DNA of 64,000 nt from a virus (lineage: Duplodnaviria; Caudoviricetes). The notes under the pieces were generated by a model. That model had not been told where the DNA came from and ran no database searches. It was given only the letters and a program-made list of their open reading frames with translations. This document shows positions 8,469-47,315 of this stretch, one piece after another. Within the stretch, counting starts at the first letter, position 1. Each line of letters starts with the position of its first letter. Location of the stretch: the IMG/VR virus record IMGVR_UViG_3300034062_005355. The stretch is one strand, 5' to 3'. The translations under genes were made by a program, and so were the position numbers.

Positions 8469-11400
8469 ATGGAAAAAATAGTTTTAGGTAAGATTATAAA
8501 AAAGATTTTTTTATTATCTGTATTAATATTATCATTAATCGGCGTAACCCAAAAAGAAGTAAATGCTTCTCACGTTGTTGGTTCCGACATATCTTATGTC
8601 TGTACAACCACACCAGGTGTTTATCGTGTTCAGTTTAAGATATATAGAGATTGTCAGGGTGTTCAACTCTGTGCCAATTGTCCCACAAGTTTAAGTCCTT
8701 CTTGTAATATTCCAATTATATTGACAGGTGGATCTGCACCTACAGGTTCAGGTTTACCAACAAGCCCTTGTGCTGGAATTAATTTTGGAACCCAAAATAT
8801 AAATGTGGTTACAGGTGTTAGTGGTTTTGATGTTGTACAACTATGTTCAGGAGAAAAATCCATTTGTACTAATTGTGGGACTAGAACACCTGGTACTTTT
8901 GTTCCTGGTATTGAGGTGTATACATTTGAAGGGAATATTAGTTTAGCATCTATTCCGGCTAGTTGTTGTTTAATCAATATAGGTTATAGTATCTGTTGTA
9001 GAAATGATGCTATAACTACTTTAGTAAATCCTGGCGCTTTAAATTTTTATACTCAAGGTACAATTAATAGGTGTGTAACACCTTGTAATTCTTCTCCAAC
9101 ATTTACAAATGACCCTGTTGCGGTTACTTGTGCGGGACAAGATTTTACTTACAATTTAGGAGCTATTGACCCTGATGGTGATTCTTTAAGTTATTCTTTT
9201 GGGCAATCACTTACAGGACCTGGTGTTACGGCGCCATATCTTTCACCATACAGTGCCAATGTACCACTACCTTATTTAGGTGCGCCAATTCAAACACCAC
9301 CTGCGGTTCCTCCTATTGGTATCAGCATAGATCCTGTAACTGGAGATCTACGGTTTAGACCGATGGGAACCTTTGTTGCTAATTTAATTATAGAGGTTCG
9401 ACAATGGAAAATGGTAGGAGGAGTACCTACCTTAATGGGTGTAACTCGAAGGGACATTCAGTTTTATAGTAGGATTTGTCCTGAAAATAACCCACCTGTT
9501 TTACGAACATGGACCAATGATGGAGTTTTAACCTCACCACAACCAAACTTTAGTTATTCTGTTTGTGCTGGACAACAATTATGTTTTATGATTTCTGCTT
9601 GGGATAATACCGCAGTTACCGATACTACAGACATTACTTGGAACGCGCCAACATTATTAGTTAGTAAAGGTGCTACATTTGTTAAAGCATATAATCCTAT
9701 TCAAAGAACTATGATTGGACCAAAATATGATAGTGTTCGTTTTTGTTGGACACCTGGTCCTGAAATGGCGAGTAATTTACCTTATTATTTTGTTGTTACC
9801 GCCAAAGATAGGGCGTGTCCTATTCCGGCTCGTACTACAAGATCATTTAGTATTTTAGTTAGAAGGATTCCTATAGCAAATATCATTAAAACCAACAAAA
9901 ATTGTGGCTTCTATGATTTTTCATATACTCAAACAAATGTCGTTCCTATTAACCCTTCGTATACTAAATTCTTAATTGAAACAAGCCCTAATTCTAATAC
10001 TTACCAAACTTTTGTTGGACCTAATGTGATCAATCATAGATTTTTACAAGGTGGTTGGCATAAAATTAGGTTACAGTTAACAACAACTGCACCACCATCA
10101 CCCAATGGTTGTCCTAACGATAATATTTGGGACTCTGTTTTGGTGGTACCTCCTGTTGATGTAAATATTAGGGATACTTTTAATTGTTTTGGAACTTCAG
10201 TTATAGTTAGGGCAAATGGACGAGATGGTACGCCTTTTGGTAGTACTTATCGGTATACTCTATATGGTGGTGGTATGGGTTCAAACAACATTATTAGAAC
10301 TTTTGGTATTGATTCCAATTTTGTAATAAACCCAACAAACCCTGGTGTTAGTAGCTCTTACAAAGTTGTTATTCAGGATTTGAATGGTTGTAAAGACTCA
10401 ACTTTATTAAATGTGTTTACTCGTAATTTACCGATTAAAGAGTTACCAAATTCTGTTCGTTATTGTTTTGGTGCAACTGACACCATAGATGGTGGTAATA
10501 GTAATGGTAGTGTTAATATTTGGCGTTGGAATAAAATTCCTGTATCACCAGTATTGACTGATACTGTATCACAAAAAATTACACCAAGAGATAGTGGTCA
10601 ATATATTGTAAGAAAAACGGATTTAAATGGGTGTTCTCAGTTGGATACTATTATGGTTTATATTAATGAAAGAGTACCTGTTAGTGCTGGTCCTAATCGA
10701 ACTATTTGTGAGAAAGACGCACCAATAAATATAGTTGGTGTTGGTACGACCGCAGCCATAGATAGTTTTCAATGGAGATCGATTCCAATATCAAACCCTG
10801 ATGTTGTTTTAAGTAGAACATCAATTCTAAATGTATCACCATTGATTACAACCAGTTATCAAGTGAGAGGATTTTTAACTTATGGTGGTGTTGGATGTTC
10901 TTATGTTGATACTATGGATGTAATAGTTAAACCATTACCAATAATTAATAGACCTGATAATATGTCTTTGTGTAGAAATACTAACATAGTATTACTACCA
11001 AATATTACTTCTACAAACAAACCTGGATTGATAACATCGGTATGGAATTATCCATCAAACCCAAATGCGATTAATGGTAATCAAGTTATAATATCTAATT
11101 TAATTAATTTACCACCAGTACCACCAACACCTGTAAGAGGAAATATTATTCGTCTTAACGTAAACGATGTTGATGGATGTAGAATAAGTGATTCAATCGT
11201 AATCTCTGTCTTTCCTGTACCATTAATTAACGCAGGATCAAGTAGAAACTTTTGTGATTTTGCTAGTGTGTTTAACATTAACCCAGGTTCCCAACTATAT
11301 TCTCCAAATGGAGGTGCGTTAGCAACTAATGAAGAGTGGTTTGGTCGTGGTATTAATAAACCAAATCCCGCGATTAATTATTATGCATTTAATCCACAAG

Positions 11401-13316
11401 GTGTTGACGTATTAACTTTACCTGACACAAATATTATAACTTATAAATTTACTGCTACATTCCCATTAAATAATAGTGTGTTATTTACACCTGCGGTTAG
11501 TGGTTTTTTCGCACCATCACCAATAGGAGGTTGTTTAGCTACCGATACTTTGGTATTTTCAGTAATAAAAACTCCGAAGTTAGAAACAGGTATTGCACCA
11601 TCTTTATGTAGGTCAGGTACTATTGTCGATATAGATCAACATATGTTAGGTAGAAGTACAACATCTATTAACCCACTAAGTAGTTATTGGTATATTGGAT
11701 CACCTGATCAGATGTATAGGACTTCAATAACTAATGGTAGAAATTTCAACCCATCAAGTCCTATATTAGAAAATTTCACCAGACAGTACAGATTAGTATA
11801 TGCTGACACATCAACAACTTGTAGGGTTGCGGATACAACTACAATTCAAGTTAATGAGAATCCTGTTGTGGATATCGATTATAATATTGTTAGTGATAGT
11901 TCAATTTGTAAAACTCGTGGTAGTGTATTCTTCTTTATGAATCCAAATAACATTTCAAGTGTTGATGGTGAGATGAAAAGTTTTCCAACTTTACCGACCA
12001 CAGCATTTGATGTAACTAATGGTAAATTTACAATCAATAATGTTCCTGATGGGGTTTATAATATTAAATATTATTATAAGGATCCTGGAACGGGATGTGA
12101 TAACAAAGATTCAATAAATATTAGAATACAAAGTCCACCTCAGGTAGATATTGTAGATGATGGATCGGTTTGTTCTTATGATGCCATTTTTAATGTGGGG
12201 TTTAAAACAATACCAAGTTCGCCATATACTTGGAATTGGGTAACACCTGATGGTAACGGGAATATTATTGATAATGGTATAAATGGAATTAACTATACCG
12301 CAACACCATTCGACATTATTCGTGGAAAAGTTACTTTTAAAGTTACAACTATAGATTTAACTACCGATCCCGATATTTGTGGTTCTGTAAGTGATTCTAT
12401 AACTTATACGATTAAACCAAAACCAGTTGCTGATTTTACTATATCACCTGATAGAGGTTGTGTTGATGAGAGATATGGGTTGGTGTTAAATTCAACTTAT
12501 ACTGCGGTTCCAAGTATTGTGGGTAGTACTTATAAGTGGTATATGGATGTTACTGATTTTAATAGTACACCACTTAACTCAAATCCATTTAATCAAACTG
12601 TTTTATCACAAACATTTACTAAATCAGGAAATCACAGGATATATTTGTTTGTTGAGGCTGATGGTTGTAAAGATACTACTGACGCTACATTAACTGCTTG
12701 GCCAACACCAGTTGCGTCATTTACCACGGATCCAAAAAGTACAACAATTGCTAAACCAAATTTTGATTTCTTTAATCAATCAAATATATCCGACAATTCA
12801 AACTTAAAATATATTTGGTATTTTCCACCACTAACTCCTGGTATACCAAGAGTAGATTATACTTTTGAACCAACCCAAGTTCAGTTTATGGCAGATACTG
12901 GTTTACAGTGTATAAAACTAACTGCGATTAGTCCTAACGGTTGTTATGATTCTACACTAGAATGTGTTCGTATTGAGCCAGATATCACGGTGTTTATTCC
13001 AAATGTATTCCGTCCGATTAACGTTGATGGAAAAGGGGGAAGTACGATAGAATGTGGATTTGGATGTAATAGGACTTTCAAAGTAAGTGCTACAGGATTT
13101 GAAACATTAGAAATATTTGTATTTAATCGTTGGGGTCAAAAGGTTTATGAATCATACATGACAGATAAAACGTACAATCCTGAGGAAGGGTGGAATGGAA
13201 GAGACTTTAATAAAGGACAGGATTGTCAACAAGATGCATATATTTACCAAGTAAATGCAACCAGTTTTAACGGTAAAAAATACACATACAGCGGTTCGGT
13301 TACATTATTAAGATAA
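8469..13316 (+). CDS. large secreted adhesin-like protein with PKD/Ig repeats and T9SS type B (gliding-motility-associated) C-terminal domain
   Basis: Signal peptide ending ..NA/SHVVGSDISY; PVADFT/PVASFT PKD motifs; C-terminal FIPNVF...FNRWGQKVY...WNG...YIY...GSVTLLR. Confidence 0.85.
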   Translation: MEKIVLGKIIKKIFLLSVLILSLIGVTQKEVNASHVVGSDISYVCTTTPGVYRVQFKIYRDCQGVQLCANCPTSLSPSCNIPIILTGGSAPTGSGLPTSPCAGINFGTQNINVVTGVSGFDVVQLCSGEKSICTNCGTRTPGTFVPGIEVYTFEGNISLASIPASCCLINIGYSICCRNDAITTLVNPGALNFYTQGTINRCVTPCNSSPTFTNDPVAVTCAGQDFTYNLGAIDPDGDSLSYSFGQSLTGPGVTAPYLSPYSANVPLPYLGAPIQTPPAVPPIGISIDPVTGDLRFRPMGTFVANLIIEVRQWKMVGGVPTLMGVTRRDIQFYSRICPENNPPVLRTWTNDGVLTSPQPNFSYSVCAGQQLCFMISAWDNTAVTDTTDITWNAPTLLVSKGATFVKAYNPIQRTMIGPKYDSVRFCWTPGPEMASNLPYYFVVTAKDRACPIPARTTRSFSILVRRIPIANIIKTNKNCGFYDFSYTQTNVVPINPSYTKFLIETSPNSNTYQTFVGPNVINHRFLQGGWHKIRLQLTTTAPPSPNGCPNDNIWDSVLVVPPVDVNIRDTFNCFGTSVIVRANGRDGTPFGSTYRYTLYGGGMGSNNIIRTFGIDSNFVINPTNPGVSSSYKVVIQDLNGCKDSTLLNVFTRNLPIKELPNSVRYCFGATDTIDGGNSNGSVNIWRWNKIPVSPVLTDTVSQKITPRDSGQYIVRKTDLNGCSQLDTIMVYINERVPVSAGPNRTICEKDAPINIVGVGTTAAIDSFQWRSIPISNPDVVLSRTSILNVSPLITTSYQVRGFLTYGGVGCSYVDTMDVIVKPLPIINRPDNMSLCRNTNIVLLPNITSTNKPGLITSVWNYPSNPNAINGNQVIISNLINLPPVPPTPVRGNIIRLNVNDVDGCRISDSIVISVFPVPLINAGSSRNFCDFASVFNINPGSQLYSPNGGALATNEEWFGRGINKPNPAINYYAFNPQGVDVLTLPDTNIITYKFTATFPLNNSVLFTPAVSGFFAPSPIGGCLATDTLVFSVIKTPKLETGIAPSLCRSGTIVDIDQHMLGRSTTSINPLSSYWYIGSPDQMYRTSITNGRNFNPSSPILENFTRQYRLVYADTSTTCRVADTTTIQVNENPVVDIDYNIVSDSSICKTRGSVFFFMNPNNISSVDGEMKSFPTLPTTAFDVTNGKFTINNVPDGVYNIKYYYKDPGTGCDNKDSINIRIQSPPQVDIVDDGSVCSYDAIFNVGFKTIPSSPYTWNWVTPDGNGNIIDNGINGINYTATPFDIIRGKVTFKVTTIDLTTDPDICGSVSDSITYTIKPKPVADFTISPDRGCVDERYGLVLNSTYTAVPSIVGSTYKWYMDVTDFNSTPLNSNPFNQTVLSQTFTKSGNHRIYLFVEADGCKDTTDATLTAWPTPVASFTTDPKSTTIAKPNFDFFNQSNISDNSNLKYIWYFPPLTPGIPRVDYTFEPTQVQFMADTGLQCIKLTAISPNGCYDSTLECVRIEPDITVFIPNVFRPINVDGKGGSTIECGFGCNRTFKVSATGFETLEIFVFNRWGQKVYESYMTDKTYNPEEGWNGRDFNKGQDCQQDAYIYQVNATSFNGKKYTYSGSVTLLR

Positions 13317-15159: not shown

Positions 15160-15547
<388 letters not shown>

Positions 15548-15629: not shown

Positions 15630-16510
15630 ATATTTATCCGTTCAGTAGTTTATTATGAGACCTTCGGGTTGATTATGAGACATTTAATCTGATAAAGGTA
15701 ATCGGCCGTATATGGTCGTTAAATAAACCATGAAAGTGGGATAAAGTGAACCTGTTGTGTTAACAGGATTGCGGCTTCGGTAACGGAGCTCGAGTATACA
15801 GGCGAGATATCATCTTTGCTTTAGTAATCGAGGGTAACACTGTAGATGAAGAGTTGAGATGACCAAGCGATGTGGGTCGTTTGGTTGAGATGGGAACATC
15901 AATAAGAATAACTCGTAGGGATATTGTAAAAAGTGAGACCTCCAATCTCATCATTGCGAATTCCAATACGAAAGTGGACTTAAAACCGAAAGGTATGATA
16001 GAGTACAGGTGGTGCTGTTACTATCCCTACTTTGAATCTACCAAGGTTCTTAGTTTGAAGTAAACTTGACATATGGAGGTGGGGACATCTCAGGGAGTAG
16101 TTTAGTATTCTGTTGTTCAAAAGATAACGGAGCTTACGGTGGACCACTACTTCTATCATCCACGACACAAACCTTAATATACATATGTTAATGTAATAAT
16201 TAATTAAAATATCAAGCACAAGTGTCCATCAGGTTTTGATGAAAGTCGCCTACATAGTCATGGGTTGTCCATGGCACACTGAGACTGCAAGTTGATGTGT
16301 ATTTTTACCAAAAACCTCTAAGGGGTCGAACCCTGAGTTAGCTCGCAAGGTTAAAGAGAGTTGAGTAATGAAAGAGTAGTTAAAACCTTTAGGAGTGATT
16401 GGTCTAACCAATCGGCGATGAGGATTACATCCCAAAAGGATGTGGATATAAAGGGAACTAATAATCCTTTTAAAGATTCTCAATAATAGGTGTAATCTCA
16501 ACCTTTTTAG
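15630..16510 (+). ncRNA. large structured ncRNA, probably GOLLD-like (boundaries approximate)
   Basis: ~880 nt with no credible ORF, GC above background, many UUCG/GNRA-capped stems; lies after a tRNA and ends at a terminator. Confidence 0.65.
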
Positions 16511-24553: not shown

Positions 24554-25150
24554 ATGAAAATCATAATCACAGAAGAACAATTCAGCAGATTCAATAGAAG
24601 TAGTCCTGCATTACAGAATGGGATTAATAAGTATTTGAATCAATACATAGAAGGTGGTACTAGAAAGATTGGTAAAAAATCTCGTAATTATGGTAATCTT
24701 AGTGAAGATTGGTGTATTGATGGAAAAAATACAATAAGTGTTTATTATAATTTTGATGTTGACGGTAATTTTAAAGATGGTTATTTATACCTTGATAGAG
24801 AACTTGTAAAAACTATATCTAAATTATTTAGTGTTAAACCAACATATGTTTTCCATGTTATTGAAGAATGGTACCAAGATGTAATGATTCCAAAGTTTGA
24901 ACAAATGGTTGGAGAATCTGGATTATATGTTGATAAAATAGATACATCTGAAAGTGTAGATGATTGTGTTCCTGAACCTGAAAAACCTGAAGGTATTACA
25001 GATGATGAAATGATTGACTTTATTGTTAAAAATACTTTATATTCTAAACCTGAGGTATTACAAAAAATAGAATCTGGTGAAAGAGATCTTGAAGATTTTT
25101 ATTTAGATGTTGTTGATGTTATTAATCGTAAAAAAATAACGGGATTTTAA
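24554..25150 (+). CDS. IITE-leader hypothetical protein
   Basis: MKIIITEEQF; GTATTTAT upstream. Confidence 0.75.
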   Translation: MKIIITEEQFSRFNRSSPALQNGINKYLNQYIEGGTRKIGKKSRNYGNLSEDWCIDGKNTISVYYNFDVDGNFKDGYLYLDRELVKTISKLFSVKPTYVFHVIEEWYQDVMIPKFEQMVGESGLYVDKIDTSESVDDCVPEPEKPEGITDDEMIDFIVKNTLYSKPEVLQKIESGERDLEDFYLDVVDVINRKKITGF

Positions 25151-25708: not shown

Positions 25709-26933
25709 ATGAATAAAGTAATTAACCGATTAATTAATGATGCAACCCAAGGAGTCGATACATATAAAACCAAAGACTCGACATGGCTTATATTTACGGA
25801 AAGTAAAAGATGGGTAATCGAACTCACAAAGGGAGGTACTCTATGGTATAATTATAATTTTTTTCAAGGAATATTGGTATACCTTTCAATGGATGTTATT
25901 GAAAATCAACACTATATTACCAAATGGGTTGAAGATAATGTTATAACTGGGGTGAAACGTATTAATGAGGACTACTCCGAAAATATTGAATTTGTTGAAC
26001 ACACCATTCAAAATGGGGTGAAAGACACCTATTCCAATTATGGTATTGGTATTTTTAGCGCTGATAAAGAAATAGTTGAACACACAATTCAAAATGGGGT
26101 GAAAGACATCCGAGTTTCAACTTATCAAAATACGTTTGCAGTTGAACACATCATTCAAAATGGGGTGAAAGACACCGAAGTCGAAAATTTCGACTTCATT
26201 AAAAGCGTTGAAGATACCATTCAAAATGGGGTAAAACATACCGAATATGGTGATTGGTTAGATGGTGATGAGAGATTTGATGATATCATTCAAAATGGGG
26301 TTAAAAAAACCCTAAGTGTGGAAGAAGGAACATTTACTTCTATTGGTTTTGGTGCTCACGTTGAAGACACATTACAAAATGGGGTAAAATATGTTGGCGG
26401 AATAGGTAATCCAAAGTGGGTTGGGAAAAAAGTTGAAGACACCATTCAAAATGGGGTTAAAGAAACAAAAATTGGTGCGCCTGATAATCGTGATTATTTT
26501 ATTGAAGACGCCATTCAAAATGGTGTTAAACACACTGAAGCTGGTGGTTACTTAGGTTCTATAGAAATGAAAGGTAAAATAGTTCACCAACTTGAATCTC
26601 CAAAACAAAATGAGGAAGTTGAATATGTTATAGAAAATGGGGGTTAAACACACTATTTGTTCAAGTGCACCGTTTGTTTATGGTGTTAAAGATACTTTAC
26701 AACACGGCGTGAAAGAAACTTTTGATAAAACTCATCATAGAAGACGAGAAGTTGTCCGAACTATAAGAGATGGAATTAAAGAAACTTATGACGATACTTA
26801 TCACCATAAAAGTAGGGTTGATGGTGTAATTAAAAATGGGATTAAACAAACCTGTGCTCAGATACCATCAATTCAACCTGTGGTAGAAAGAATACTTGAA
26901 GAAGGTATAATTCAGGACTCACAAGATTGTTAG
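25709..26933 (+). CDS. repeat-array protein, one gene split by a +1 G near 26640 (ORFs 25709-26647 and 26637-26933)
   Basis: VEDTIQNGVKHT-type units continue across the break; the 9th repeat has 5 G instead of 4. Confidence 0.75.
25928..26918 (+). CRISPR. CRISPR-like array of 14 degenerate 36-nt repeats, in frame inside a coding sequence
   Basis: Best copy GTTGAACACACCATTCAAAATGGGGTGAAAGACACC; spacers 30,45,30,30,33,48,36,33,81,30,30,30,30 nt. Confidence 0.55.
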
Positions 26934-28231: not shown

Positions 28232-28279
28232 ATTTTATATATCCTTAACAAAAGTTAAATAAGCTGCAATTTCATTTTC

Positions 28280-28315
28280 GGTGTTTATAACCTTCAAATT
28301 GAATCTATCTTCAAC
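28280..28315 (-). repeat. solitary 36-nt CRISPR-like repeat
   Basis: Minus strand GTTGAAGATAGATTCAATTTGAAGGTTATAAACACC; 2 mismatches to the 44072 repeat; flanks unrelated. Confidence 0.85.
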
Positions 28316-28334
28316 TTAATATTTTTTTTTGACA

Positions 28335-42493: not shown

Positions 42494-42733
42494 ATGAAAT
42501 ATATCATCACAGAACAACAACAAGAAAATTTAATTTATGACTACTTGAATAAGTACATTGAGTCAGGTTGTGTCAAAATTAAAAAAGCTGGTAGATATAT
42601 GTCCGTTGATGTTGAAAGTCCAAGTTATTTTGAATGGAATGGATTTGATAGGTCTGATGCCTCTAAGATAAAAATATTTCTAAAAAAGAACTCATTCCAA
42701 TATGCGTTCGGAGATTACATCAAAGAATTTTAA
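42494..42733 (+). CDS. IITE-leader hypothetical protein
   Basis: MKYIITEQQQ. Confidence 0.75.
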   Translation: MKYIITEQQQENLIYDYLNKYIESGCVKIKKAGRYMSVDVESPSYFEWNGFDRSDASKIKIFLKKNSFQYAFGDYIKEF

Positions 42734-42737
42734 TAAC

Positions 42738-43154
42738 ATGAAAATCATCATAACCGAATCCAAAATGAATTCCACCATCTATAATTTTATAGATGAACTA
42801 TTTGCGTCAAAAGATGGGAATCCCGAAATTTTTAAACTTGACTCTTTTGATTCAGATGGAGCACCATTGATTGATGCATTTGATTTTGTGAATTCCGATT
42901 ATTATGGTGATGAGGGTTCAGATTACCTTTTTAGTTGGACAGGAAAAGAATATTATAAAACAATTTATGCTCAAGGTAATATAACCAAATTTGAATATGA
43001 AAGGATGATATTGGTATCACCTTTTGTTGAAATTATAGATAAAGATGCTATTGATTCTCTCAATGGTTATTTTGGTGATTTGTGGAAACCTGTATTCAAA
43101 CAATGGTTCAAAGATAAAACAGGATTGGATTATAAAACTTTAACTTTATATTGA
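42738..43154 (+). CDS. IITE-leader hypothetical protein
   Basis: MKIIITESKM; C-terminal FKQWFKDKTGL. Confidence 0.75.
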   Translation: MKIIITESKMNSTIYNFIDELFASKDGNPEIFKLDSFDSDGAPLIDAFDFVNSDYYGDEGSDYLFSWTGKEYYKTIYAQGNITKFEYERMILVSPFVEIIDKDAIDSLNGYFGDLWKPVFKQWFKDKTGLDYKTLTLY

Positions 43155-43155
43155 T

Positions 43156-43482
43156 ATGAAATACATTATAACTGAGAGTAAAATGGAAAACATGATTAAG
43201 GAATATATTCTTAATGATGATAATGATGTTGTTGATGTTGAGTTTGGGACTCAGCGTATAATGTTAGGTTCAGGTCCAAATGAAAAGGGTGAAAGAATTG
43301 TGACACAAAAAATAATCATGGTAACCTTTGATAATGTTAAAAATAAAAAGACCTCAGGTGAATTAAGAGAAAGTACAAGAAAAATTGCAAAAACTCTTGA
43401 AGGTTTATTCGGGATTGATTTTAGAAGTTATGGTAGTGAGTGGGCTTTGAAATTCTATCAAATAAAAAAAGAAGAACTATAA
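43156..43482 (+). CDS. IITE-leader hypothetical protein
   Basis: MKYIITESKM. Confidence 0.8.
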   Translation: MKYIITESKMENMIKEYILNDDNDVVDVEFGTQRIMLGSGPNEKGERIVTQKIIMVTFDNVKNKKTSGELRESTRKIAKTLEGLFGIDFRSYGSEWALKFYQIKKEEL

Positions 43483-43490
43483 CATGAAAT

Positions 43491-43826
43491 ATGCCGCCAA
43501 GAAGACGAAGATTATTAAAATATATTATGGATAAAGAAGAAGTAGAAAACGCAATTAATAAATTAATGTCATTAATTAAACCTGATGAGGTTACGGAAGT
43601 TGCGTTTGAATTACCACACTCATCACCAGATTCATTTACAATGAATGTGGTTTTTGTTGTACCTGATGAGTGGATTAAATCTATGGATGAATATGAACGT
43701 CCTTTGGCTCTTATCCATTTTGTTCAACATATAAGAAAACAAATTAAAAATTATTTGGGAATTAATATTGTTATTCCAAAAGGTGACAGTAGAATTGTTA
43801 AAGAAAGTGATTGGTATAAAATATGA
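43491..43826 (+). CDS. hypothetical protein
   Basis: 111-aa ORF within the cassette run. Confidence 0.65.
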   Translation: MPPRRRRLLKYIMDKEEVENAINKLMSLIKPDEVTEVAFELPHSSPDSFTMNVVFVVPDEWIKSMDEYERPLALIHFVQHIRKQIKNYLGINIVIPKGDSRIVKESDWYKI

Positions 43827-44143
43827 AATACATTATAACAGAAAATAGATTAAACAATATTGTATTCAAATATTTGGATATGAAATATGGCGCTCTTGAA
43901 CAAAAAAAAGGAAAGTATAGTGATATTATTTTTGATTTTCCTGATGAAGAATATGGTATATTAGGATGGGAAAAATCAGGAAATTTATATGTTTTTCACA
44001 AATTAAGGGACGAAATTTCCAAATATTTTGGACTGGATAACAACGATTCCCTAAGGGTTATAGGTAAGTGGGTTGAAGATAGATACAATTTGAAGGTCAT
44101 AAACACCAATGGGCAAAGTATGTATTACCTCGCCCGTGGTTGA
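43823..44143 (+). CDS. IITE-leader protein whose 3' end runs into the CRISPR-like mini-array
   Basis: MKYIITENRL...GKW-VEDRYNLKVINT-NGQSMYYLARG*. Confidence 0.8.
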   Translation: MKYIITENRLNNIVFKYLDMKYGALEQKKGKYSDIIFDFPDEEYGILGWEKSGNLYVFHKLRDEISKYFGLDNNDSLRVIGKWVEDRYNLKVINTNGQSMYYLARG

Positions 44144-44240
44144 AGATAGATACAATTTGAAGGTCATAAACACCGTCCGGCTAGGGTTCCATCTTTGGTA
44201 ATATGTTGAAGATAGACACAATTTAAAGTTAATAATAACA
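44072..44240 (+). CRISPR. orphan CRISPR-like mini-array: three 36-nt repeats, 31- and 30-nt spacers
   Basis: GTTGAAGATAGATACAATTTGAAGGTCATAAACACC identical at 44072 and 44139, degenerate at 44205; spacers unique and GC-richer than flanks. Confidence 0.7.
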
Positions 44241-44596
44241 TGAAATACATAATAACAGAAAGTAAAATTAACAAATTTGTATCCAATTATTTGGATGGAC
44301 AAAAATGGTATACATGGGATATTGGAGATGGTGAATTTAATGTTGCCGATGAAGAATATGGAAAAGACATTATTCATTATAGAATCCAAGAATCAATTAC
44401 GGTTCCTGACCGTATGTTTGATTTAATTTATGTTGATGGTATGTTTGTTACAAGGTTATCCAAATTATTTGGTTTGGAGGCTGTTAGGGATGTTAATCCG
44501 TTAGTTGTTAATTGGTTTAATAAAAAATATAATAAAAACTTAAACAAAGACGATTGGGAGTGGATGGATGAAGAAGATGAAGAAGAAGATTTTTAA
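44240..44596 (+). CDS. IITE-leader hypothetical protein
   Basis: MKYIITESKI; ATG overlaps the last base of the third repeat. Confidence 0.8.
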   Translation: MKYIITESKINKFVSNYLDGQKWYTWDIGDGEFNVADEEYGKDIIHYRIQESITVPDRMFDLIYVDGMFVTRLSKLFGLEAVRDVNPLVVNWFNKKYNKNLNKDDWEWMDEEDEEEDF

Positions 44597-44599
44597 ACA

Positions 44600-44674
44600 A
44601 TGAAATACATTATAACAGAATCACAATATAAATTAAAAGGATGGGGGTTTTTTATTTATGGGGTATTTATGTAA
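44600..44674 (+). pseudogene. leader-only cassette remnant
   Basis: MKYIITESQYKLK runs directly into a half-terminator (tgggggttttttatt). Confidence 0.6.
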
Positions 44675-44675
44675 T

Positions 44676-45920
44676 ATGAAAGTAACGATTAGCGAAAGCC
44701 AATTTATTAGAATGGTTAATAACTCAAAAGGGTGGGGGTTAATCGGTATTAACGAGGGCGGTAAACCAAAAAATACTTTAGAATATATTAAAGACCATAG
44801 TAATGAATTAGAATTAAAATATTTAGGAACGCAAGACGAAAAACTTAGTTATGGGATGACAGACTATAATTGGTTAGATAGAAATAATAAAGAATTGCGC
44901 GACAAAATTATGTTACACCAAAAAAATAAAAAGAAGAAAAAAGAACGGGACATAATAGAAAAAAAATATTTAGGAACTATAGATGGAAACCCTATTCCAG
45001 GATATAATGTTGTTGATACACTTAAGCAGGGTTCCGAGGATTATTATTGGCTTAAATATAATGACATACCTTTACGTGATAAAATTAAAAGTACAGAATA
45101 TTCTTTACTTGGAAAAGTACCTACATCAACAAGATACGTTTCAAGTGATATTAAAGACCATAGTAATGAATTAGAATTAAAATATTTAGGAACGCAAGAC
45201 GAAAAACTTGTTCCAAACTATAAAGTTGTTGATAAACTCACATATAACACTACAGATTATAGTTGGTTATCTAATTATAACATACCATTACGTGACAAAA
45301 TTATGTTATACCAAAAAAATAAAGATATTGAAATACGTAGTAATGATTTCCTCCAAAACTATAAAAAAAATAAGGAGTTTAATTATCTTATGACGGATTA
45401 TAAGTGGTTATGGTATAATAATCCAAACTTGTTTAAAAAAATTAGATTAGATTTTATAAAAAACCACCCTGAAAAACGTAAAGAAAGTATAGGGGAAAAA
45501 AATCTTAAAGACGTATTAAATAGTATGGGATTTACAGGTTTAATTCCTCAGTATAAATATGATGATTGTAGAGGGTCAAAATCTTGTCGTCAGTATATGT
45601 TTGATATATATTTACCATATACAGGTAAAAATATAGAAATTAATGGTAATATACCAAAAAATGGAGTTTTATTTGAATTTGACGGAGAAGGACATTTTAA
45701 ATCTATTAAAAGTTGGGGGGGTGATGATGGTTTATCAGAACGTATTTATAATGATGTATCAAAAAATGAATATACCAAAACTAAAGAAATTAAATTAATT
45801 AGAATTCCATATACCTCTAATAATAAAGAGTTTATTAAGAGCCAAATTATTGATGCACTTAATAACCCTAATCAATTAGTTTTAACTGGAAATTATCCCA
45901 AACTTGGGTGGAATAAATAA
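44676..45920 (+). CDS. TISE-leader PD-(D/E)xK (DUF559/Vsr-like) endonuclease with N-terminal repeats
   Basis: ESIGEK...FDIYLP...FEFDGEGHF...D..KN...LIRIPY; 60-nt exact duplication at 44787 and 45150. Confidence 0.75.
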   Translation: MKVTISESQFIRMVNNSKGWGLIGINEGGKPKNTLEYIKDHSNELELKYLGTQDEKLSYGMTDYNWLDRNNKELRDKIMLHQKNKKKKKERDIIEKKYLGTIDGNPIPGYNVVDTLKQGSEDYYWLKYNDIPLRDKIKSTEYSLLGKVPTSTRYVSSDIKDHSNELELKYLGTQDEKLVPNYKVVDKLTYNTTDYSWLSNYNIPLRDKIMLYQKNKDIEIRSNDFLQNYKKNKEFNYLMTDYKWLWYNNPNLFKKIRLDFIKNHPEKRKESIGEKNLKDVLNSMGFTGLIPQYKYDDCRGSKSCRQYMFDIYLPYTGKNIEINGNIPKNGVLFEFDGEGHFKSIKSWGGDDGLSERIYNDVSKNEYTKTKEIKLIRIPYTSNNKEFIKSQIIDALNNPNQLVLTGNYPKLGWNK

Positions 45921-46358: not shown

Positions 46359-47315
46359 ATGGATAAAACAATTAAACTTCTTGAAGAATTTCTTAAAGAT
46401 TACACAATGGAAGGAGCCTGTGGTTTTTGGGTGCAACCTGATGAAGAAGGTGGAGTGCCGTCAGTTTATATTGTATTGGATTTAGATTGGTTGAAGGAAA
46501 CCCAAACAAAACCTGGATTTATTGAACGAAGAATGAGACAAGGACTTAAAGAAGATATTAAAAATTGGACAGGTATTGAAGTTCCTTATGTTGGTTCCAC
46601 CGCAAAAAAATGTGGTAGTCTAAATGAAAATGTGTCAACGTATCTTCGTAGAAGATTGTCTTTAGAGGGTATGAAACAAGATATTGATAATCTTGTTGAT
46701 TATGAATTAAATCCATGTGAATTTTCGGATATTGGTGATTTTGTTGCTGAAGCCTGTGATATGTTGGCGCATAACTATCTTGAAGACCTACAAGTATCAT
46801 CTAAAGATAAAGATAAGTTCTATTTTGCACTTGTTGATTTATTTGGGAAACATCTTGTGAATGTATACAAACAAAGATGTGTAGAAGGACTAATGGAATC
46901 CAAAAAGAGAATTATTGTTACAGAATCTCAATATAAGAGGATATTTGAACAGAAAAAATCAAAAGTTGAGATGTTTCAAGACTTAATAAATGATAAGTTA
47001 GAAGATATTAGAAAAGAGTGTGATGATTTGGGATTTAATTTTGAGACTTGTAATGATGTTGATATGATTGAATCTATTAAAGTTGAAGGGGTGAATATGT
47101 TAACAGGTGACAGAACGGACATGAGTGGTAATAAGTATGTTTCAGAACCATCAATATACGTTAAACTCACAATTAATTATTCAAGTATTATCCCATCAAA
47201 GGATTTTGACGAAATTATTTATGATTTAAAATGGATGTTAAAAAAATCAACAGGTGGATTACCAATTGTATTGGATTATCAAATAAATAATTTGAACACA
47301 AATAAAGAGTGGTAG
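46359..47315 (+). CDS. three-module protein with internal LNE and IIVTESQ leader-like junctions
   Basis: GSLNENV and LMESKKRIIVTESQYKRIFEQ occur internally. Confidence 0.7.
   Translation: MDKTIKLLEEFLKDYTMEGACGFWVQPDEEGGVPSVYIVLDLDWLKETQTKPGFIERRMRQGLKEDIKNWTGIEVPYVGSTAKKCGSLNENVSTYLRRRLSLEGMKQDIDNLVDYELNPCEFSDIGDFVAEACDMLAHNYLEDLQVSSKDKDKFYFALVDLFGKHLVNVYKQRCVEGLMESKKRIIVTESQYKRIFEQKKSKVEMFQDLINDKLEDIRKECDDLGFNFETCNDVDMIESIKVEGVNMLTGDRTDMSGNKYVSEPSIYVKLTINYSSIIPSKDFDEIIYDLKWMLKKSTGGLPIVLDYQINNLNTNKEW

Follow-up and report, generated by a model that had tools for sequence, protein, structure and literature searches.

Viral mini-arrays carry one or two spacers and no cas genes; their repeats are identical to those of host arrays, and their spacers are mostly directed against related viruses (PMC11656645). 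RNA anti-CRISPRs (Racrs) are single repeats, host-like in both sequence and fold, which are produced as small RNAs, in most cases with a promoter of their own close upstream (PMC10651486). Cracrs are defined by their likeness to host CreA/CreR RNAs together with partial pairing with cas or toxin promoters (bioRxiv 10.1101/2024.10.29.618823). Neo-CRISPR arrays have been seen in E. coli chromosomes in which Cas1-Cas2 was artificially up-regulated, according to the citation of Nivala et al. (2018) in bioRxiv 10.1101/148544.

The DNA analysed here, a 64,000-nt stretch of a tailed phage genome (IMG/VR record IMGVR_UViG_3300034062_005355; "the window" below), carries at 28280–28315 a CRISPR-type repeat that the original prediction took to be a solitary unit, and either a candidate Racr or a recombination junction between gene cassettes. 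The block to which this unit belongs can be classed as a variant form of viral mini-array. It is probably a copy, displaced and without a leader, of a gene-fused array with a repeat derived from coding sequence. It resembles the described mini-arrays in being a phage-borne repeat-spacer-degenerate repeat without adjacent cas genes, and in having sister arrays with different spacers in related phages. It differs from them in that no host array with the repeat and no spacer target were found in the searches reported here, in that the repeat is phage coding sequence, and in that the copy at 28280–28315 has no leader.

A repeat unit followed by a spacer and half a repeat

Our analysis of the minus strand at 28280–28315 shows one 36-nt repeat copy, 34/36 identical to the exact copies at 44072 and 44139, which are the only two exact copies in the window and both lie on the plus strand (Table 1). 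The mismatches to the 44072 repeat are A14T and C27T (repeat coordinates), and no chance match to the repeat was found in 100 dinucleotide-preserving shuffles of the window. Identity among the three copies ends sharply at the 36-nt borders and their flanks share nothing, so the borders are defined independently of the array. These results agree with the original prediction, which had described a minus-strand copy with two mismatches and a 36-nt unit definable without the array; the ORF list and the sequence likewise bear out its placement of the unit between two IITE cassettes, 48 nt before the next ATG. The unit begins 19 nt past the stop codon of the 111-aa gene and ends where those 48 nt ahead of the ATG of the 161-aa gene begin; both genes are on the minus strand and both start with MKYIITE. 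It is non-coding, since an in-frame TAA directly precedes the repeat. A terminator scan found no terminator-like site between the two genes, which are presumably co-transcribed.

Table 1. Features of the repeat block at 28280–28315 and of the main array in the same window
Feature	Coordinates	Strand	Remarks
Upstream MKYIITE cassette gene, 111 aa	28335–28670	−	From the ORF list; 25 homologues, 62–100% identity
A-rich linker of 19 nt, stop codon to repeat	28316–28334	−	Conserved in full-block and half-repeat-only relatives alike
Full 36-nt repeat unit	28280–28315	−	34/36 to array repeat
Spacer-like segment of 30 nt	28250–28279	−	Identical in L007, L020 and L027; 28/30 in L008 and L037
Truncated degenerate terminal repeat, 18 nt	28232–28249	−	14/18 to repeat 5′ half; abuts next ATG
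Downstream MKYIITE cassette gene, 161 aa	27746–28231	−	Weak, sub-threshold leucine-rich-repeat domain match
Leader gene of main array	43823–44143	+	ORF spans first repeat; the final conserved residues, behind Lys-Trp, are encoded there
Reference mini-array: repeat, 31-nt spacer, repeat, 30-nt spacer, degenerate terminal repeat ending at ATG of gene 44240	44072–44240	+	

The claim that the unit is solitary did not hold. The 48 nt that follow it are made up of a 30-nt spacer and an 18-nt partial repeat. The latter corresponds at 14/18 to the 5′ half of the repeat (its first 18 nt), and the 161-aa gene begins immediately behind it. Matches of at least 14/18 to this 5′ half occur at 7 of 127,966 window positions, four of them the repeats themselves, and the probability of a 14/18 half repeat at an offset of 29–31 nt from the unit is about 1.6e-4. 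The ends of the arrays in the related lake-phage contigs L002, L003, L005/L006, L009, L012 and L038 run in the same order, with a full repeat, a 29–31-nt spacer, an 18-nt half repeat and the ATG of an MKYIITE gene; the array of L004 ends in the first 15 nt of the repeat, 8 other nt and then an ATG. Because its layout is that of the array ends of relatives, the block is a one-spacer mini-array with a truncated terminal repeat, and its 36 + 30 + 18 nt give it one trait of viral mini-arrays, at least two repeats at CRISPR spacing around one or two spacers, with no Cas family found among the 24 window ORFs searched. Screens for Racrs should take into account that repeat finders may miss a second repeat as short and degenerate as this one, so that a displaced mini-array can pass for a "solitary" repeat.

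Gene-fused arrays and the coding origin of the repeat

A scan of JGI metagenome contigs found the repeat in six contigs, all with the context of the 44072 array; its holders there are solely phage contigs with the same gene-fused array. In these six the orthologue of gene 43823 has a Lys-Trp codon pair at its 3′ end, and the first repeat follows this pair in frame. The spacers of the Lys-Trp arrays are 28–31 nt long and vary between contigs. The spacer at the trailer end is common to L002, L003, L005/L006, L012–L017 and L038, and the leader-side spacers are private (no extra spacer in L012, one each in L002, L005 and L038, and three in L003). Spacer turnover in these arrays thus has the polarity of CRISPR-type acquisition. 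Their repeat copies are mostly exact, with a few that carry one or two changes; the copy at 28280–28315 has two.

When orthologues and paralogues of gene 43823 are aligned, one residue is invariant, the Trp just before the repeat. The paralogues carry related residues after this Trp, and in the diverged orthologues of L012 (1820–1855) and L018 (1877–1912) the repeat segment is kept as protein, with synonymous and conservative changes. Judged from these alignments, the repeat is phage coding sequence, the segment that follows the invariant Trp of a gene family. In this the arrays are like neo-CRISPR arrays, since the repeat is a pre-existing local sequence of non-CRISPR nature: copies of the ordinary 3′ coding end of a phage gene flank inserts the size of spacers. 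They are unlike neo-CRISPR arrays in that they belong to a phage lineage, in which they persist and are still growing, and the block at 28280–28315 is a secondary, displaced copy.

Several minor features of the repeat family may be mentioned here. The repeat holds an internal direct repeat, TTGAAG, at positions 2–7 and 19–24. On the minus strand of L001 the last full repeat is followed by a form with a 19-nt deletion that joins the two TTGAAG copies, and the coding version at L018 1877–1912 has an 18-nt duplication, with ERYNLK present twice; the deletion and the duplication suggest slippage inside the repeat. A second family of 36-nt repeats is present on the plus strand of the window at 25994–26536, in frame (VE[DH]TIQNGVK.T) and with in-frame inserts of 30–48 nt. 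Its first 8 and last 5 bases are those of the 28280–28315 repeat, and its array region starts after a homologous Lys-Trp. Two 36-nt units like those of this second family are also found in L032 (RFNS01000051.1), an AT-rich 1848-bp contig of an alphaproteobacterial metagenome-assembled genome from Lake Lanier, which is probably a phage contig that was mis-binned.

The junction behind the 111-aa gene in relatives and the origin of the block

The junction behind the 111-aa gene was read in 25 contigs, in which homologues of the protein are 62–100% identical. The full block with the same spacer is present and identical in L007, L020 and L027; L008 and L037, whose proteins are 91–95% identical, also have the full block, with one mismatch in the repeat and two adjacent changes in the spacer. 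All seven block-bearing contigs (the window, L007, L020, L027, L008 and L037, plus 17 similar places counted with L007) share a single spacer that varies at 2 nt, and no second or alternative spacer was found at the leaderless block in any of the seven. In L009–L019 and L038 (84–87% identity) a 19–25-nt linker is followed by the 18-nt half repeat only, which matches the 5′ half of the repeat at 15–18/18, and then by an ATG; L039/L040 and L033–L035 (74% identity or less) have neither block nor half repeat. This junction is the sole one in the sample where a half repeat occurs without a full repeat 29–30 nt upstream. Behind the half repeat L009 has a 98-aa ORF (called as a 72-aa gene), and L012–L019 and L038 have a 43823-type gene, the latter with its own repeat at its 3′ end about 267 nt downstream. 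In L038, 267 nt separate the half repeat (1359–1376) from the 5′ half of the gene's own repeat (1626–1643), and the two are direct repeats with 17/18 identity.

A tree of the 111-aa proteins groups the contigs with the full block in one subclade (85/92), which is nested in a half-repeat clade (100/98), and the outgroups have neither; the 100/98 clade is otherwise a polytomy. The same repeat-spacer-half repeat module precedes at least four different genes in different contigs, so it appears that crossovers frequently fall at the junction. The block does not travel with the downstream 161-aa gene, whose homologues occur elsewhere without it. Of the two options in the original prediction, a recombination junction between cassettes is the better supported, as relatives carry at this position either the complete block or the half repeat by itself, with different genes after it.

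The reading toward which we lean is that the block is a leaderless, frozen one-spacer remnant which arose by recombination between repeat copies at an MKYIITE cassette junction and has no function of its own. It would descend from the gene-fused arrays of this phage lineage, which begin after the Lys-Trp of 43823-type genes and gain spacers at this end. The partners in the recombination were most likely a full repeat and the 18-nt half repeat found ahead of cassette ATGs; with the half repeat and the shared MKYIITE gene start together, ordinary homologous recombination would have about 39 nearly identical nt to act on. The simplest event would be the loss or relocation of the 43823-type leader gene that still stands at this spot in relatives, since removal of the gene from an L038-like arrangement would bring the linker up to the full repeat, with spacer, half repeat and next gene behind it, as in the window. 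The product would be a repeat-spacer-half repeat 19 nt behind the stop codon of the 111-aa gene that, having no leader, would take up no more spacers, and that is probably transcribed passively as intergenic RNA of the minus-strand operon. On a tree with the above polytomy the reverse event, insertion of a cassette into an older block, is equally possible.

The 5′ flank of the unit is unrelated to the Lys-Trp leader, and the two marks of an active array, a leader beside the first repeat and polarised spacer gain, are both absent from the block. In the systems that have been studied, integration is guided by the junction of leader and repeat, and repeat length is set by a ruler inside the repeat (PMC6895254); the absence of a leader therefore fits the constancy of the single spacer here as against the varying spacers of the Lys-Trp arrays. 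The block can be regarded as a natural leaderless control, with the same repeat, spacing and half repeat as the leader-bearing arrays and no spacer gain, and the contrast between them supports leader-dependent, CRISPR-type integration into a repeat of phage coding sequence. It also points to repeat copies as mediators of the rearrangement of small phage gene cassettes.

Could the block have arisen in situ, when a CRISPR-type integration placed one spacer into an isolated half repeat and the gene start beside it, a "zero-spacer array" at which acquisition still goes on? There are relatives with only the half repeat at the site, the half repeat plus the first 18 nt of the downstream gene is 25/36 identical to the repeat, and off-target integration can found new arrays, at least as Nivala et al. 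(2018) is cited in bioRxiv 10.1101/148544. Such an event would make a second copy of the local repeat. In its 3′ half, however, the unit is 17/18 identical to the canonical repeat and only 10/18 to the downstream gene start (manual count), so it descends from a canonical repeat and not from a duplicated local half repeat and gene start. This and the uniformity of the spacer in the seven contigs make local integration quite unlikely.

A further possibility, which we think unlikely, is that the 36-nt repeat and its 18-nt half copy serve as the crossover sites of a cassette-exchange system for MKYIITE genes, built on a repeat that a CRISPR-type integrase loads with spacers. A gene would be excised or inserted by recombination of the half repeat ahead of it with the full repeat at its 3′ end; 28280–28315 would then be the empty site left after a 43823-type cassette moved. 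Integron gene cassettes and CALINs are similar in that single-gene units are swapped at short conserved intergenic sites. They differ in that there is no hairpin-forming, attC-like site and no integrase here, and homologous recombination of the plain kind can make use of the shared 18 nt and the MKYIITE start that the genes have in common.

Host repeats, Cas proteins, targets and neighbouring features

No array with the repeat was found in the 185,579 species genomes of GTDB, and a scan of IMG/VR with the repeat pattern gave no match. A genome scan for two copies matching the termini only returned genuine CRISPR repeats in Alphaproteobacteria, Hydrogenedentota and Poriferihabitaceae; these are unrelated, non-Bacteroidota families, and such matches are uninformative because they share just the forced ends. 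Among cultured phages a near search with the window region gave no match, and a distant search gave chance-level matches only. No Cas family was found with Pfam, NCBIfam and PHROGs among 24 window ORFs that include both flanking genes (a Csn2 match of 46359–47315 scored 19.7 bits, below the 23.7-bit cut-off, and was taken as noise), and the related giant-phage records G001–G003, two of them near-complete distant relatives, contain neither Cas1 nor the repeat. Protospacers of the local 30-nt spacer were not found in the window, the 40 loci, IMG/VR (exact scan) or INPHARED, nor were those of either main-array spacer in the IMG/VR scan.

These searches bear on the reading in which the block is a working one-spacer mini-array or a Cracr-type RNA, where a Cas protein of the host or the phage would cut the operon transcript at the repeat and half repeat. 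The product would be one unchanging guide, aimed at a gene of the host or at a competing phage. The arrangement of repeat, spacer and degenerate repeat does match viral mini-arrays and Cracr units (PMC11656645; bioRxiv 10.1101/2024.10.29.618823), and the block shares with Cracrs a degenerate repeat beside a fixed spacer-like segment in a phage; both traits that define Cracrs refer to the host. In addition, the sister arrays gain spacers in a polarised manner, which implies that this repeat is encountered by machinery of the CRISPR type, and the block is nearly unchanged between relatives at 91–100% identity. Weak purifying selection, and hence a function, may act on the 103-nt block: it differs from that of L008 at 3 of 103 positions against a dS of 0.085 in the neighbouring gene (P 0.02; underpowered), and from that of L037 by the same 3 differences against a dS of 0.037 (P 0.46; underpowered and inconsistent with the L008 result). 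On the other hand, neither a protospacer, a host array nor a Cas gene turned up in the above searches, the repeat is unstructured (below), and the block is confined to a very shallow clade. On balance we consider a working guide rather unlikely.

The repeat has a minimum free energy of −0.6 kcal/mol (z +1.1), worse than 180 of 200 shuffles, and forms no hairpin; Rfam has neither CRISPR-DR nor any other family at the unit. Sigma-70-like promoter sites near the unit are not above the level of shuffles, and the one Bacteroidota-type −7 motif (TAnnTTTG) within 250 nt lies 145 nt upstream of the unit, in keeping with chance density. A Racr, that is, a repeat-bearing RNA that soaks up host Cas protein in dead-end complexes, is for these and other reasons very unlikely. 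Like Racrs, the locus has a repeat of CRISPR type that lies in a viral genome at a distance from any cas genes, and if the effector were one that uses spacer-then-repeat guides (type II, VI-B), the RNA upstream of the repeat would be in the sense of phage mRNA and so a non-targeting guide. Unlike the single repeats of Racrs, the unit at 28280–28315 is accompanied by a spacer and a partial repeat, has no detectable promoter of its own or fold that mimics a repeat hairpin, and sits 19 nt past a stop codon inside an operon. Moreover, its repeat is derived from phage coding sequence and is in no known host array (185,579 genomes and the JGI contigs), and it carries two substitutions where most array copies in relatives are exact. 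The original prediction's candidate Racr is thus left with no cognate host repeat, Cas gene, promoter, fold or protospacer among those sought.

The orientation of the unit, opposite to that of the 44072 array, raises the thought that a plus-strand RNA could act as a tracrRNA-like anti-repeat, 34/36 complementary to the transcript of the main array and followed by T9, a run that starts 7 nt after the plus-strand copy. However, such an RNA has no hairpins beyond those of shuffles (z +0.05 to +0.56), no terminator was called at the T9 run, and no Cas9 was found. The orientation is fully accounted for by the inversion of the gene block, and it is on the minus strand that the order repeat, 30 nt, half repeat, ATG is read. 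We regard this explanation as extremely improbable.

Two features of the window fit a Bacteroidota host. TAnnTTTG occurs 148 times in the whole window, compared with 107 ± 11 times in shuffles, and the ORF at 8469–13316 has a CHU_C type IX secretion domain.

The start that the flanking genes have in common is more widespread. Twelve otherwise unrelated small proteins of the window share the N-terminus MK(Y/I)II(T/S)E (their genes include those at 24554, 25152, 27742, 28231, 28670, 42494–44600 and 51417), and synonymous variation in the codons of this motif indicates constraint on the protein. It bears a possible resemblance to the N-terminal capsid-targeting sequence of phage T4 internal proteins, which is cut after a Leu/Ile-x-Glu motif. 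Just past the array gene cluster, at 44600–45920 on the plus strand, a truncated MKYIITE ORF of 24 codons leads into an ORF of 420 aa with N-terminal modules that are repeated internally and with PHROG matches to homing endonucleases and HNH proteins (E 2.7e-14 and 8.7e-13); it is possible that this homing-endonuclease/HNH-like ORF drives local rearrangement. Farther away, a full-length GOLLD RNA (Rfam RF02032, 321 bits, E 3.5e-91) is present on the plus strand at 16093–16504, about 700 nt downstream of a tRNA-Met gene (15306–15379).
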